From Raillietiella orientalis (lineage: Eukaryota), in assembly GCA_036172245.1 (NCBI GenBank), contig JAYWIR010000003.1, forward strand, positions 6,324,001-6,388,000: a DNA stretch of 64,000 nt. Reading direction: 5' to 3'. Positions within the stretch are counted from its first letter, which is position 1. Each line of letters starts with the position of its first letter. The notes beneath the pieces are model-generated. The model saw nothing but the letters and a program-made list of their open reading frames with translations. It was not told the DNA's origin and did not search any database. Below, piece by piece: positions 3,001 through 51,824 of this stretch. A program made the position numbers and the translations under genes.

Positions 3001-3999
3001 TGATTTCAGCAAAGGAGGGAGAGCATAAGCAAAAGAACAAGATCAACGATTCGCGAAGGTCAACTGACCAATCTACATGGAACACCGACGAAACAAAAGT
3101 AAGAAGAATCGGGAGGAGCTACAAAAAAGTAAGAACTGTTTCAAAGAAAGCAAGGAAACCGCAAAAGCAGAACGTCAACAAGTGAGAGTAAGGATTCTTT
3201 CTTTCTAAATAGTCGGCTAATATGTTTGATTTCTTCCAACGCTGCCGGGTGAGTCTCCTTTGGCTATCAGCCACCTGCAGCGCTGCTGCCCACCGAAGAA
3301 GACGTGGGCGGAGCAGTAGTTGGGAGATCCGAAGATGCCGAAGAGATCGGTTCAACGTGCAACAAGCAGCGGCATGGAATGCGAATAGGGCGTGTCAGGT
3401 TGTTAGGTGTTGTGAGGTGTCAGTCAAATCCAAGTACTATGGAGTTGGATGATTCCAAGGGTCTGCATCCAACTCGAATCAGATGGAATCTCGTTTAAAA
3501 TCTCAATCTCAATGGAATCTCACCTCCATCTCACTTCGCAGTCTATCACGGATATGAAGCTCCACATCGCGCGGTAACGCATCACGTCATGCAGGAGCAG
3601 AAATAACTCTGAATGCTGCAAATGATGTTAGGAAATTTCCTCGACTCGTGGTCAAGTTTCTTGCATAGCATTCTAAGATCGAAGTGGTAGTGGTTAATGA
3701 ATAGATGGATCGGAAGAGAAAAAGACTTTGGTAAGCAGTTACGAAAACGCCTACTACTGCTTTCAGATGATTCCATGAGTGAACGGCCTATGGAACAATA
3801 GCCCCTTTTATTGAATACGCTTTCTAAGGCAACTCTGCTTTGAAAATAATTAACTGAATGAGACTGTTTGACTATTTCTATCGACTTTGCTTTGAAGGGA
3901 TGGCGCAAAACCCACTGCAGGCTGACAAACTTCAGGAGGGAGGAACTTTAGCTGCGGCACTTGGAAAAAGGTTTGCCTTCCCCTGAGTACTTTGAAATC

Positions 4000-4286
4000 A
4001 AAAGTTGCGGAGACCTTAGGCCGTAGTCACACGACCCGCGTTGGTGGCCCTGTGACTACGGCCTCCAAGCGTAGCACCAAGCGTTGCAGGTTCGAACACC
4101 CACAAAGGATAGATGCCCCTCATCGGGGAGCTGCTCACGCGAAGCAGCGCCTCCGAGGCACCTCCCTTCGTAGTGGTGGTGCGAAGCCACTACGAAGAAA
4201 GACATTTTATATTTTATATGATTTGTTTATTTATTTTTAAACATTTCCTTACAATAAACGCCCCGGAGTGACCCGGTGAAAATAAA
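4000..4286 (+). mobile_element. Candidate SINE-like or non-coding retroposed element carrying the LINE-family 3' end
   Basis: Degenerate A-box-like TGGCCCTGTGA (4045-4055) and B-box-like GGTTCGAAC (4089-4097); chain of hairpins; terminal AATAAACGCCCCGG..CCCGGTG shared with LINE copies A, B and C. Confidence 0.4.
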
Positions 4287-4299
4287 GGATCGATGCCGA

Positions 4300-5016
4300 G
4301 AAATGGGAGCCTTCGTGGGTTTTGAGTCTCCCCCCGGAAGATGACGCTGGTTGGCCTTGGTTGGCTTCGGGGGAGGCACTGGTGGAAGCCGGAAACCGGA
4401 TGCCCCCTTGACTGGCCGAAACCGGAAGCTGACCCTCCAAGGTTCTCCCGGGAATCAAGGAGCGTCGGTTCCCTTCGGGGTTCTCCTCCTCCTGGGAAAA
4501 TGAAGTCGTCCCCCCCTTGGGGGGCGAAGGGATTCTCCATCGCGTACTGGTTGGTACCCTGGTAGACGGTTGCCTCTCCAGAGTGTTACAGAAGCGCGCT
4601 GCTCCCTTCGGAGAGTGTCCTTCAGAGAAACTTGGAAGTGTTTCTTCAGGGTTCTCTTCAGAGAAGCCCCGTGTCTGAAGAGGAATAACAAGGAGCAGAT
4701 CCTTTCCGGGTCCCCTTCGGCGAAGAAACGAGAAGTGGCCTTCTCCGGAGAGTTCCTCTGGAGAGAATAAGGAAGAGGCTCCTTTCGGGGATCCCTTCGG
4801 AGACTACCAGGGCGAGGGGTTCCCACCCAAGCGTAAGAAGAAAGGACTCCTTCCTCCAGAGCCTTCCTGGATACATAGGGTGGTCCCTCTGGAGTTAGCC
4901 CTAACTTGAAGAGTAACATGCACCCTCGGGTGGTGGTGTGGACAGTGTTAAAGAAGTTTGGAGGGTCTCACCCTAAGGAGATGGACGGCTCTTCAGCATT
5001 TGGCGAACCAAAAAAA
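4300..5016 (+). other. Highly self-complementary, structured-RNA-like segment of unknown class ending in A7
   Basis: Multiple nested perfect helices and five CTTCGG motifs on the + strand; no recognisable protein in any frame (see findings). Confidence 0.55.
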
Positions 5017-5364
5017 GACATGACCCGAAAAAGAAAAAAAAATCAAAAGTTGCATGTCACATGCAAACGACTTAATGAAAATGATAAAAAACCTCACCAC
5101 ACCATTTTTGAGTCTGTACCTAAAGGCTGTTTAGGGAACATTCGAAATGGGGGGATCTCTGGAAGTTTGTTGCAAAATTTTGTTGACCTCTGGAAGGGAC
5201 TGTGTTTTATGAGATATTTTTTTTACATGCGCAAAAACGAGCTGAGCGAACTGAAATGAAAGCATGTTTGGAAAAGAATTCTTTTTTCCGGAATGCATGG
5301 GCATCTAGAGAGTGATGCGGTGATAAGTTTTGAAATTGTCCATGCTCGGAGGCACATCTGTGGG

Positions 5365-8132: not shown

Positions 8133-10986
<2,854 letters not shown>

Positions 10987-44035: not shown

Positions 44036-45810
44036 AGCATTCTTTGTGAACAAATTTAACAAGCGCTTCTTGTAAAACTAGTCTATTATTTTTCCCATAG
44101 TGAGAGTTTCATTCATCAGAAATAGGATTACATCAGTTTTATAAAAACAAAAAAAAAAATGAGCTTCGTATCTCCTGAAGCTGAGTTCATATCTAAAGTT
44201 TTTCCTTTACTCATTCGATTATTCTTTCCCTTTTTTATTTCATGACGTGGCAGCTCCTTTCCTCCGATCGCATCGCTAACCACGATTTTCAAAATTACCA
44301 TGTGCCCCATGAACAGAGATGCAATGAATTCGTCACGAAGGTGATGAGTATGATTAAATTTCATTTACTTTTCTTTCCTTCTAAATAGGCAACCAAAGAT
44401 GCTGATAATTTTAGTTCATAGAGTCACAAACATTTAGATTGAACTATCCCGACTTCATTATTTTAATGCTATTCTGAATCACTCTCTGAATAGAATGAGT
44501 TTTGTTGAAAAAATTATAGTGTTTCTCTTTTGATTTGACAAACGCTTTCTTCTTTCACTTATCCAGGTGAACTAACGAGGACTTCAACCTTGGCACTATC
44601 TTAGATCCTACACGCTTTCTCACGCCATTCCAAGAATCGATTTCAGTCTAAGAGATCTTTACCATAAATCGAAGCTCAGGTGTCGTCATTCGGGTGCTTA
44701 CTGTCGTGTTTTTTATCCCTGGAGTTGTTATCCCTGGTTTATCGCTAGAATCCATTATTAGATTTAAAAACAAAACAAAAAAAATTCCTTCCAACATTGA
44801 AAACCTGCTTTTATAATTTCTTTTCTGACTTGGTAAACCTGGAAATCTCCCGTCTATCTTCTAATATCATTCCCTTATTCTTACTTCTGTTTTCAGCTTA
44901 ATCTTTAGTCTTGAAAACATTTGCTGGTTAAAGTCTCCTTGTTACTAATGAAAAACAAAAAGCACATTCATAATCGACTTTCTTATGTTATTCTATTCAG
45001 TGAGAGCATGGTTGTCTCTCTGATCAGTGTTCTTAGAGGCTGGTGGATTGGGTGAATAGTGCAACACCAACTAACTATAGAGCATAGTATTTTTAGAGGT
45101 TATTACTTTCTTCCCACTATGTTGGATCCATTTGGCCTTTGTCTCATCAGCACATTGAAATTCCGTGTGGAGCTGAAGAAATGGCTGTCTTCAAAAAGAT
45201 CGAAATTTTCCATTTTTGGATTCGTTACATATTTATCACTGAATGAAAATTTCCAGTTAGAGCATTCTATCACTCAATTCATAGAAGGAGGATTTGGCTT
45301 GTCTAAACCAAGACAATAACAAAAATACACAACACATTTCTTTTGCTTTAGGAAAACTTAATCCTTCTGAAGGTTTGAATTCCTTTTAGGGTTTCGGGTT
45401 GGATTCTCTTTATTGCTGCACGTCTAACCTTAGCAGCTTTTGTGACGATTCAACACTTTCCATCTTTTTTTCCCTCTTGACAACATGATGCACAATTTGC
45501 AGGAGTTTTCAGAGTATTTCTTTTTACATTTCCTATGGGAAATTTTCGCTTTCTGAGTCCGTATAAGTTTCAGCAGTGATTCTGATTGAAATATCGCATC
45601 AGTTCCCCTTCTATACACACCACGGCGACATTTGCATCGCTTGCAGTGTGTGATCCCTATCGTTCGTGCACGAATTTTCCCAAGGAGACATCCAAGGAGT
45701 CGCTGGCCATCGTCATCTTCGTTGGAATTTGTTTGCTCCTCTGCAGATGCTCCTTTACGGAGAGCTTCTTCTTCTTCTTCTTCTTTTTATCTGAATAGCA
45801 ATGCTTCTGT

Positions 45811-46475
45811 TTTTCGCCCGGGCGCGCCGGGGCGTTTATTGCTAAACTATCCGAGAACAAAAGCTCCCAGACAAAGGGTACAGAGGTACGGAGGGAAGGA
45901 TCCCCGACACGCAGGTCGGTAAATCCGAAAGTCCGGAACGGGAAAGAGGGGGCCACCAATAAACATATGAAAAATGCAAAAAAAAAGACATGGGGGGGAT
46001 TGGGACAGGGGTCTTTGGCTTCGGCCGTTCCTTCCTTTGAGAACCGGCGTTGGATGCGTGAGATCTCCTTCCTGACGTCTTCTGGAAGATGAGGCCACCC
46101 GGCAGCCGACGTCATGATCGCTATTCCGCTGATCTCTCGAAGAATGGCCTGCGGCTGCAACTGGCGGCGGGCCGCGACGATGGCGCGGATGCAACAGATC
46201 GTTGCGGCAACCTCACCTAACGATGGGCCTCCTGGCGCGAAGAGGCGGCGCGTCAACATTCTTGCGGCGTCCCCCTGGTGCAGGAGAGCTGAGGCCAGCC
46301 TCCTTGGAGGACACCGCAGTCCAACAGCAGATGCGGGAGCGTTTCTGCTTCTCCGCACCTTTTGCAGTTCGGGGAGACAACTCCCCCGGAAACAAGGTTC
46401 GTGCGCTGGTTGCAATGGAAGCCCCAATGCACCAGCAAGATCACGTCCAGCTTCCATGGAAGGGGGAACGCAGAT
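45811..46475 (-). mobile_element. 5'-truncated non-LTR retrotransposon, same family (copy A)
   Basis: Nearly identical to 50380-50780 in the reverse orientation, with the same CCHC motif and the same AATAAA+hairpin end. Flanked by 13-bp direct repeat GCAATG(C/T)TTCTGT (45798-45810 and 46476-46488, one mismatch). Confidence 0.9.
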
Positions 46476-50053: not shown

Positions 50054-50952
50054 GGAAAAGGAGGAGGTGATGCAGAACCAGGAGAAGTGGACTCACTTGG
50101 CCGTCACGCCCCTCGCCGAAGCGCTGTCTGCCCTCAGGGCGAGCGATGACAGCTGCCTACCGGCGAGGTGAAAGCTCGCCTGCACTATCGCAGGAGCAAC
50201 CCGACCCATGGGCGGCTGGAAAATTAGCGAGGTGGCAGACGCCGCCACGCCTCGCAACATCCCGAAGGGACTCCTTCGGTGGAGCGAACTTTTGAGTGTG
50301 CCCCCCGAAGGACTTCTGGTCCCTCCCTCGTGCGTGGGCACTTCTGTGTTCCCCCTTTCGTGGAAACAGGACGTCTTCCTGCTGGTGCATTGGGGCTTCC
50401 ATTGCAACCAGCGCACGAACCGTGTTTCCGGGGGAGTTGTCTCCCCGAACTGCAAAAGGTGCGGAGAAGCAGAAACGCTCCCGCATCTGCTGTTGGACTG
50501 CGGTGTCCTCCAAGGAGGCTGGCCTCAGCTCTCCTGCACCAGGGGGACGCCGCAAGGATGTTGACGCGCCGCCTCTTCGCGCCAGGAGGCCCATCGTTAG
50601 GTGAGGTTGCCGCAACGATCTGTTGCATCCGCGCCATCGTCGCGGCCCGCCGCCAGTTGCAGCCGCAGGCCTTTCTTCGAGAGATCACCGGAATAGCCGA
50701 CGACATGACGTCGGCTGCCAGGTGGCCTCATCTTCCAGAAGACGTCAGGAAGGAGATCTCACGCATCCAACGCCGGTTCTGGAAGTAAGGAGCGGCCGAA
50801 GCCAAAGACCCCCTGTCCCCAATCCCCCCATATCTTGTTTTATATTTTTTATATATTTATTGGTGGTCCCTTCGTTTTTCTGTGTCCTTTGTCCGGGAAC
50901 CCTGTTCCCGGATAGTTTAGCAATAAACGCCCCGGCGCATCCGGGTGGGAAA
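50054..50952 (+). mobile_element. 5'-truncated non-LTR retrotransposon (L1/Tx1-like), 3' end of ORF2 plus 3' UTR (copy B)
   Basis: CCHC zinc knuckle CKRCGEAETLPHLLLDC; 3' end AATAAA (50922-50927) plus GC hairpin; flanked by exact 14-bp direct repeat CAGCAGCAAAACCA (50040-50053 and 50953-50966), interpreted as a target-site duplication. Confidence 0.9.
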
Positions 50953-51824
50953 CAGCAGCAAAACCATGTAAACACACCTTATCGGGATCCATTAGGAAGA
51001 TGGATCTTTTCAGGAAGAGACAAGTGATGGAGTGGAACCGACTGCTCGTGCTGCAGAAATTCATTTTGTCTCTAATGAGGGGAAGCAGGGCATTTATTCG
51101 ATTCTGAGAATTCTGCGCAATTAATCCAGAATTCCGGATCCTCTAGATGTACGATGCAAACTGCTGCAAATGAAGATCAGCGAGACACTAACTGATTGCA
51201 GCGTGGAAATGAGAAACTTCCGGCTTTGCACCTACAGGGTTTCTCTGTGTAGGAGTTGCCACGGCAACTTCCTTTCGAAGTCAGCATCCTCACATCCTTC
51301 CTTCATCAGAGAAAGGACCTCTTCTGTTTGCAATTCGTAGCCAAGCTTGTTCCCAACTCATCCTGGTTATAGAAATACTCGGAATTCATTTCATTCATGA
51401 CGAGGGAACTGTGCGACCAGAGGAACGTCGAAAGGACAGAGGCGAAAGGACAGCAGCTAATTCCGAGTTTTCAACATTCTGTTCCGCGTTTCATCTTTGT
51501 GTTCTTTATAACGATTAAGGAAACAGATACGCATCCTTTTCCCAATCTTTTGTTTTGTAAGAAGCTGTTTCTTTTGCATTATTTATGCATGCTGCCCATA
51601 GTCACGGTGAATTCTGGGATGGTCATTAATGATGAGTGCCAAATTCATCAAATCTAATCTATCGGGGGAACGAATGTCTTGTTGGAAGCGATGCATCGTT
51701 TATACAAATACAGAAGAATACAAAAGAATTATGGATTGAATGGTGAGGAAGAGCAAATGAGCATCGGCTGACTGGAAAAACGAGGTTCAATCAGGGACCA
51801 CGAATGCGTAAGACTTGTTGAAGA

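Follow-up and report, generated by a model that had tools for sequence, protein, structure and literature searches.

The window analysed here, a 64,000-nt stretch of Raillietiella orientalis contig JAYWIR010000003.1 (positions 6,324,001 to 6,388,000), contains at 4300-5016 a segment that the initial annotation described as a retroposed, densely folded RNA of unclassified type. This raises the questions of which RNA the segment was copied from and whether its folded appearance reflects a structure on which that RNA depended.

Motifs and folding of the flagged segment

The sequence motifs behind the proposal are present. All nine helix pairs that had been named (9/9) are exact reverse complements, CTTCGG occurs at 4365, 4473, 4606, 4715 and 4795, and a run of seven A is found at 5010-5016. 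Five CTTCGG motifs are more than expected by chance (mean of 0.46 in shuffled sequences, with none of 300 shuffles reaching five). Their interpretation as capped hairpins held for one of the five: as read from the sequence of the window copy, a stem of at least 3 bp is present at 4473 only. The motif at 4365 overlaps an arm of the named GGCTTC helix. The lack of CCGAAG, taken as a sign that the + strand is the folded one, proved uninformative, as 172 of 300 shuffles also lacked this motif. In the full window, CTTCGG and CCGAAG occur 18 times each.

No special folding of the segment was detected. The folding z-score was -0.45 on the + strand and -1.53 on the - strand (20 dinucleotide shuffles per strand), and none of the 120-nt windows within the segment reached a z of -2. 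Perfect helices of at least 6 bp numbered 87, compared to 86.0 ± 9.5 in shuffles; those of at least 8 bp numbered 12, compared to 6.8, a count reached by 16 of 300 shuffles. The three-domain model that had been drawn for the segment was absent from both its computed minimum free energy (MFE) structure and its centroid.

The folded look arises from an array of repeated modules. The autocorrelation of the body has maxima at 39-41 and 79-81 nt; a CCCTTCGGGG-like unit recurs at ~40-nt spacing. The modules are quasi-palindromic hairpins separated by purine-rich linkers; they are worn, and Tandem Repeats Finder missed them. Repetition of the ~40-nt module explains the excess of CTTCGG, and nested helices arise easily because near-palindromic modules pair within and between themselves. 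When 37 other old copies of the family described below were compared, their majority matched three of the nine named helices, namely 4363/4385, 4574/4756 (with one mismatch) and 4854/4887, with 75-80% of cells paired. The helix arm at 4674-4680 is a private insertion of the window copy, and the remaining named helices either lie in gapped columns or are private to it, in part or in full. The named helices are thus for the most part peculiar to one decayed copy or products of pairing between self-complementary modules.

The element at 4009-5039 and its family

The boundaries first assigned to the segment were wrong: the element starts ~290 nt upstream, and the A7 run is not the 3' end of the family. 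The window copy is one old copy of a short interspersed element (SINE) on the + strand, at 4009-5039, with its head split from its body by a 166-nt fragment of a long interspersed element (LINE). An exact 14-bp target-site duplication flanks it at 3995-4008 and 5040-5053, the only two occurrences of this 14-mer in the window. The view that the segment is a retroposed non-coding RNA was therefore borne out. The family also proved non-coding: four stop-free frames matched 0 Pfam families, and 1072 of 1183 indels were frame-shifting. Elsewhere in the window, exons of a Sec23 gene are located on the - strand at 8624-9934 (Pfam Sec23_helical and Gelsolin for 8627-9058).

Just inside the 5' duplication, a 5' extension at 4009-4033 appears non-templated from its sequence. 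Its positions 4019-4031 are an exact 13-bp inverted copy of head bases 4051-4063 and drive the fold of 4000-4300 (z -5.67). This inverted copy is a probable product of fold-back during insertion. No comparable 5' extension was seen upstream of the other SINE heads displayed; fold-back junctions are alike at two further loci (L087 and L291). The tRNA-derived head (4034-4103; profile match 4035-4117) carries a worn B box at 4089-4099 and is ~51% identical to tRNA-Arg(CCT). ARAGORN detected no tRNA in the window. The head is followed by the first copy of the nested LINE's own 14-bp duplication (4104-4117, 13/14 identical to 4284-4297) and by the 5'-truncated LINE 3' end (4118-4283), which comprises hairpins, an AT-rich stretch, AATAAA at 4253 and a terminal hairpin.

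The SINE body (4284-5009), corresponding to the flagged segment, contains a second T-arm-like motif near 4316-4333 and then the ~40-nt module array. It is 16% diverged from the family majority, which is typical of old copies. The copy ends in an internal A-rich linker (5010-5039); full elements extend past it for another ~130 nt, to a hairpin that is followed by 2-10 T and an A-tail. Many other copies are 3'-truncated at an internal A-stretch in the same manner. The primer-binding-site-like motif that had suggested the end of a long terminal repeat (LTR) leads into the A-linker and, in the copies, then into the SINE tail or the target-site duplication. Judging from its sequence, the window copy is presumably dead: the LINE insertion splits it, its B box is worn, and it has a private T4 (4320-4323), with neither subfamily majority containing T4.

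A search of the genome returned at least 50 matches from 40 scored of 5208 candidates, mostly at ~70% identity and on many contigs. A single 18-mer had 953 exact matches genome-wide (control, 0). The family thus has at least 953 members and, as copies diverge by 14-29% from the majority sequence, probably several thousand. Near full-length loci were kept in 46 of 78 cases, and the duplicates L031, L083 and L111 were dropped. Aligned copies begin at the tRNA-like head with its B box, and 53 profile fragments begin within the first 10 positions. Among 62 tRNA loci of the genome, tRNA-Arg(CCT) was the best match to the head of both the old majority (49/78 positions identical, 63%) and the young majority (47/77, 61%), a marginal assignment with Asn scoring nearly equal. 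Target-site duplications of ~11-19 bp flanked 7 of 38 and 11 of 27 copies, compared to 22 of 1406 (1.6%) and 16 of 702 (2.3%) mismatched controls. The elements measure ~790-950 nt before the first A-linker; with tail, the old subfamily reaches ~920 nt, and the young subfamily ~1085 nt.

The + strand of the 878- and 1085-nt majority sequences contains no T4, whereas A-runs occur there 4 and 7 times, consistent with polymerase III transcription of the + strand. The putative polymerase III features are the B box and the lack of T4 on the + strand before the terminal hairpin. The + strand singled out by the initial annotation is the transcribed one; a special fold of the flagged copy on that strand was not found. 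The tails of L260, L263, L264, L269, L271, L273, L278 and L281 consist of a variable T-run followed by A-runs, several of them mixed T/A, a pattern pointing to 3' tailing after transcription that does not use AATAAA.

The young subfamily is represented by 289 exact matches of a diagnostic 19-mer, and its copies mostly differ by 5-8% from their own majority. L289 and L291 share 683 nt at 100% identity but have different flanks, and L291, a 3'-truncated copy, has a ~13-bp duplication; this pair is a case of very recent activity in a third lineage. A young-type copy, L296, is located at G000:C3:6318945-6319850, ~4 kb before the window start.

SINEs were defined by the three operational criteria of SINEBase (PMC3531059), as set out in the part of that source used here. 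Two of these apply to the family, and for the third, a length of <1 kb, the elements are at the limit, with the young ones (~1085 nt) slightly over. The most fitting description of the family is a tRNA-derived SINE in a long, modular variant. As in the tRNA-derived SINEs of the same part of SINEBase, a tRNA-like head is joined to a non-coding body and an A-rich tail, hundreds to thousands of copies are dispersed, and subfamilies differ by internal duplications or deletions (PMC3531059). In contrast to the SINEs covered there, whose length ranges from 75 to 662 nt without tail, the elements here are longer, end in a terminal hairpin and T-run without AATAAA and are frequently 3'-truncated (PMC3531059). 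In the quasi-oligomeric SINE CHRS, a degenerate unit is likewise repeated ~10 times and variants differ in unit number; compared by description, that unit is ~20 nt, whereas the one here is ~40 nt and hairpin-forming (PMC3531059, same part).

The LINE fragment at 4118-4283 sits at a recurrent insertion site of the SINE. All 40 scored matches to it (40/40) were 79-100% identical, and its relatives share up to ~1.5 kb upstream. Of 19 other loci that carry this LINE end, 9 have the SINE body immediately after it; at several such loci the SINE head lies upstream of the LINE, with varying truncation points. Related LINE 3' ends occupy three recurrent SINE sites: one just behind the head in sense orientation, one in the tail, and one near 157-175, where nine inserts of 193-1354 nt are antisense. 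LINE-in-SINE loci comprise the window (4104-4297), L112-L130, the group L006, L010, L019, L041, L044 and L099, and the group L004, L009, L034, L045, L108 and L287. Reverse transcriptase fragments near these loci match RVT_1, and solved proteins of R2 type and of L1 match them at similar E-values. Of 87 tail loci, 30 were inspected; none of these carried a LINE with the 3' hairpin of the SINE, and 29 had SINE sequence upstream. Landing at a fixed site within another repeat, in either orientation, is also described, in the portion of the source drawn upon, for Tx1-Mar LINEs and SINEU in Mariner-N4_AMi and for Tx1L in Tx1D, but here the landing pad is a SINE (PMC4494074).

At L006 and L119, a related insert lies behind TTAA at SINE position ~733, which suggests a TTAA-specific DNA element. 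In the window, two inverted LINE 3' ends (45802-46474 and 50343-50960) are complementary over 355 nt (97%) and 109 nt (95%) and end in the AATAAA-hairpin motif also present at 4253-4278.

The fold in young and old subfamilies

In the young subfamily, the majority body folded at z -6.25 on the + strand and -4.77 on the - strand (20 shuffles), scores that duplicated hairpins alone could raise. The mis-oriented L142 was left out of the majority-fold set. The young RNA is predicted to be 65% paired, in 65 helices, none longer than 11 bp uninterrupted in the centroid. Across 18 of the 89 young copies, sampled for this purpose, the fold z weakened with divergence (rho 0.65, p 0.004).

The test set comprised 89 of 118 young loci, from which homopolymer runs and the flanks of indels were excluded. 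Alleles present in at least 10 copies were called shared and taken as inherited from source elements, and those in at most 3 copies were called rare and taken as mostly post-insertion. Sharing was scored by allele frequency, and few clades are supported in the tree of the young copies. The ratio of shared to rare alleles was 3/274 for pair-breaking changes, compared to 11/89 for pair-keeping changes and 19/170 at unpaired sites (p 8e-6 and 5e-5). This contrast also held at thresholds of 6 and 8 copies; transition-only contrasts were not significant at the 6-copy threshold. At predicted G-C pairs, shared C>T changes, which yield G-U on the + strand, stood at 17/169, compared to 3/166 for the mirror change G>A (p 0.002). 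The corresponding values at unpaired sites were 5/46 and 3/45, and the comparison of G>A at paired and unpaired sites alone gave p 0.11. Shared T>C changes numbered 0/49 at paired and 6/48 at unpaired sites. When the paired labels were shifted along the sequence, 1 of 914 shifts produced as low a value. Two predicted pairs among 28 change on both sides together, compared to 0.11 expected from background linkage. A raw excess of double changes in the young copies (90 vs 52.8) was set aside, being inflated by relatedness.

The old set consisted of 38 copies, after 8 young or intermediate copies had been left out. Compensated cells showed no excess in these copies (82 vs 84.5 ± 7.8 expected), and divergence was 0.183 at paired and 0.181 at other sites. 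The old majority sequence folded at z -0.9 to -1.7. Because copies decay after insertion, the lack of compensation in old copies says little about their sources. Transfer of structures between lineages gave mixed results: the old structure tested on young copies yielded p 0.003-0.20 and the young structure on old copies p 0.08-0.49, and there was no excess of double changes between lineages. On six divergent copies, the young structure yielded p 0.013-0.21 and the reverse test 0.37. Two divergent copies (L286 and L262) fold better on the minus strand, and strand-neutral counts of G-U vs A-C mismatches were 27 vs 17 and 22 vs 15.

These comparisons point to a predicted fold that is probably under purifying selection in the active source elements of the young subfamily and decays after insertion. 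Selection on the fold is supported for the young branch only and is presumed for the sources of the window copy. The proposal that folding matters was thus upheld at the family level, in the young subfamily, and not in the flagged copy. Covariation across genomic copies, suggested as a check, showed no excess in the 38 old copies and was found as the two linked compensatory pairs in the young ones.

A rival account would be an ordinary SINE in which a palindromic ~40-nt unit was duplicated and in which stems stay tidy, with no selection on the fold, through template switching or through mutation biased to loops at the RNA stage. The periodic modules do account for the CTTCGG motifs and the inter-module helices, local fold-back events are seen at insertion ends (4019-4031, L087 and L291), compensation is absent in old copies, and the lineage-to-lineage tests are weak. 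However, repair of DNA palindromes is strand-symmetric, yet shared C>T changes at G-C pairs exceed G>A by 17 to 3. Moreover, C>T is equally frequent in stems (10%) and loops (11%), whereas T>C and transversions show a depletion. A C>T bias tied to transcription might account for some of the asymmetry, but not for the depletion. We therefore consider hairpins as a by-product rather unlikely, though deserving of some weight. The explanation we favor, and hold with reasonable confidence, is that the window copy is an old and dead member of a long tRNA-Arg-like SINE family whose fold is selected in the sources of its young branch.

Possible role and origin of the structured body

Under the favored explanation, polymerase III would read a source copy from its internal promoter over ~0.9-1.1 kb to the hairpin and T-run, and the SINE RNA would then receive its A-tail. 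A LINE protein would nick the DNA and prime reverse transcription on the tail or on the internal A-stretch, as in the window copy. Priming would take place on A-rich stretches without a LINE-derived tail, in keeping with the SINE sequence upstream at 29 of 30 tail loci. Many short helices would keep a long, uncapped transcript stable and aid assembly with protein into a ribonucleoprotein (RNP) until it is copied. The most likely role of the fold is in RNA survival and RNP assembly, a function that would benefit the element, not the host.

Precedent exists in Alu RNA, whose jumping depends on RNA structure and in which, like here, an internal A-stretch divides the parts, according to the portion of that work considered (PMC12062377). 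Alu differs in being derived from 7SL, with a fold that binds SRP9/14, whereas the family here has a tRNA-like head and no Rfam SRP match (PMC12062377, same portion). In the literature searched, with most subscription journals, Repbase and Dfam outside its scope, neither a SINE body with selected UUCG-type hairpins nor such a nematode family was described.

A more far-reaching possibility is that the hairpin array is a multivalent RNA module, perhaps from an RNA-only replicon, that binds or decoys host double-stranded RNA or RNAi proteins, with the DNA copies serving as fixed landing pads for several LINE lineages, one of which copies the SINE. We regard this as speculative and improbable; if true, it would amount to a two-way SINE-LINE partnership centred on a selected ~1-kb structured RNA.

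Viroids, like the SINE body, are non-coding, hairpin-rich and heterogeneous. The body also contains UNCG- and GNRA-type loops and alternating purine/pyrimidine tracts, which we take to resemble those of viroid-like RNAs and counted in favor of capture. The initial annotation had considered a lone viroid-like, satellite or virus-derived RNA and, as a weaker alternative, an LTR end with a primer-binding site; the segment is neither, but belongs to an abundant tRNA-headed SINE as its body. Still, such an RNA, or a retrozyme-like circle, might have been captured behind the tRNA promoter or retroposed, and Rfam revealed no cellular source of the body. The window copy, one old copy and three young loci also gave no credible match in Rfam, to ribozymes or otherwise, at either the gathering or the E-value level. 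A motif scan yielded no complete hammerhead core: the young majority and the window copy each contain CUGANGA with GAAA after it, but hammerhead stems I and II were not seen around it by eye. There were no multimers (0 of 158 heads behind a 3' end), no LTRs or long direct repeat around the element and no conserved frame, given the frame-shifting indels. Searches of viral and metagenome contigs, confined to exact patterns, returned 0 motif matches. Capture is accordingly very improbable in our estimation. Retrozymes, in the section of the source used, are similarly non-coding, hairpin-rich and heterogeneous at 600-1000 nt; the family here differs in that no LTRs, ribozyme match or multimers were found and in that copies run from a tRNA-like head to an A-rich end and have target-site duplications (PMC4918200).

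That the window locus itself was exapted as a functional structured non-coding RNA is scarcely credible: two helices (4574-83/4756-65 and 4854-61/4887-94) do pair better in the window copy than in the family majority, but the fold z is only about -0.5 to -0.7, the head is split by a LINE fragment with T-runs, the B box is worn, T4 is present at 4320, and the 16% divergence is typical of old copies.

In conclusion, the flagged copy is ordinary debris, while its family, as a long tRNA-Arg-like SINE with a fold probably selected in young sources, is a natural experiment. Hundreds of young copies record the changes tolerated by active source elements, and they point to selection on the fold across ~900 nt of SINE body. 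Published work, in the parts we draw on, places the structural needs of SINEs in the SRP-binding domain or a 3' stem-loop. With this family, the role of SINE bodies becomes testable within one system.
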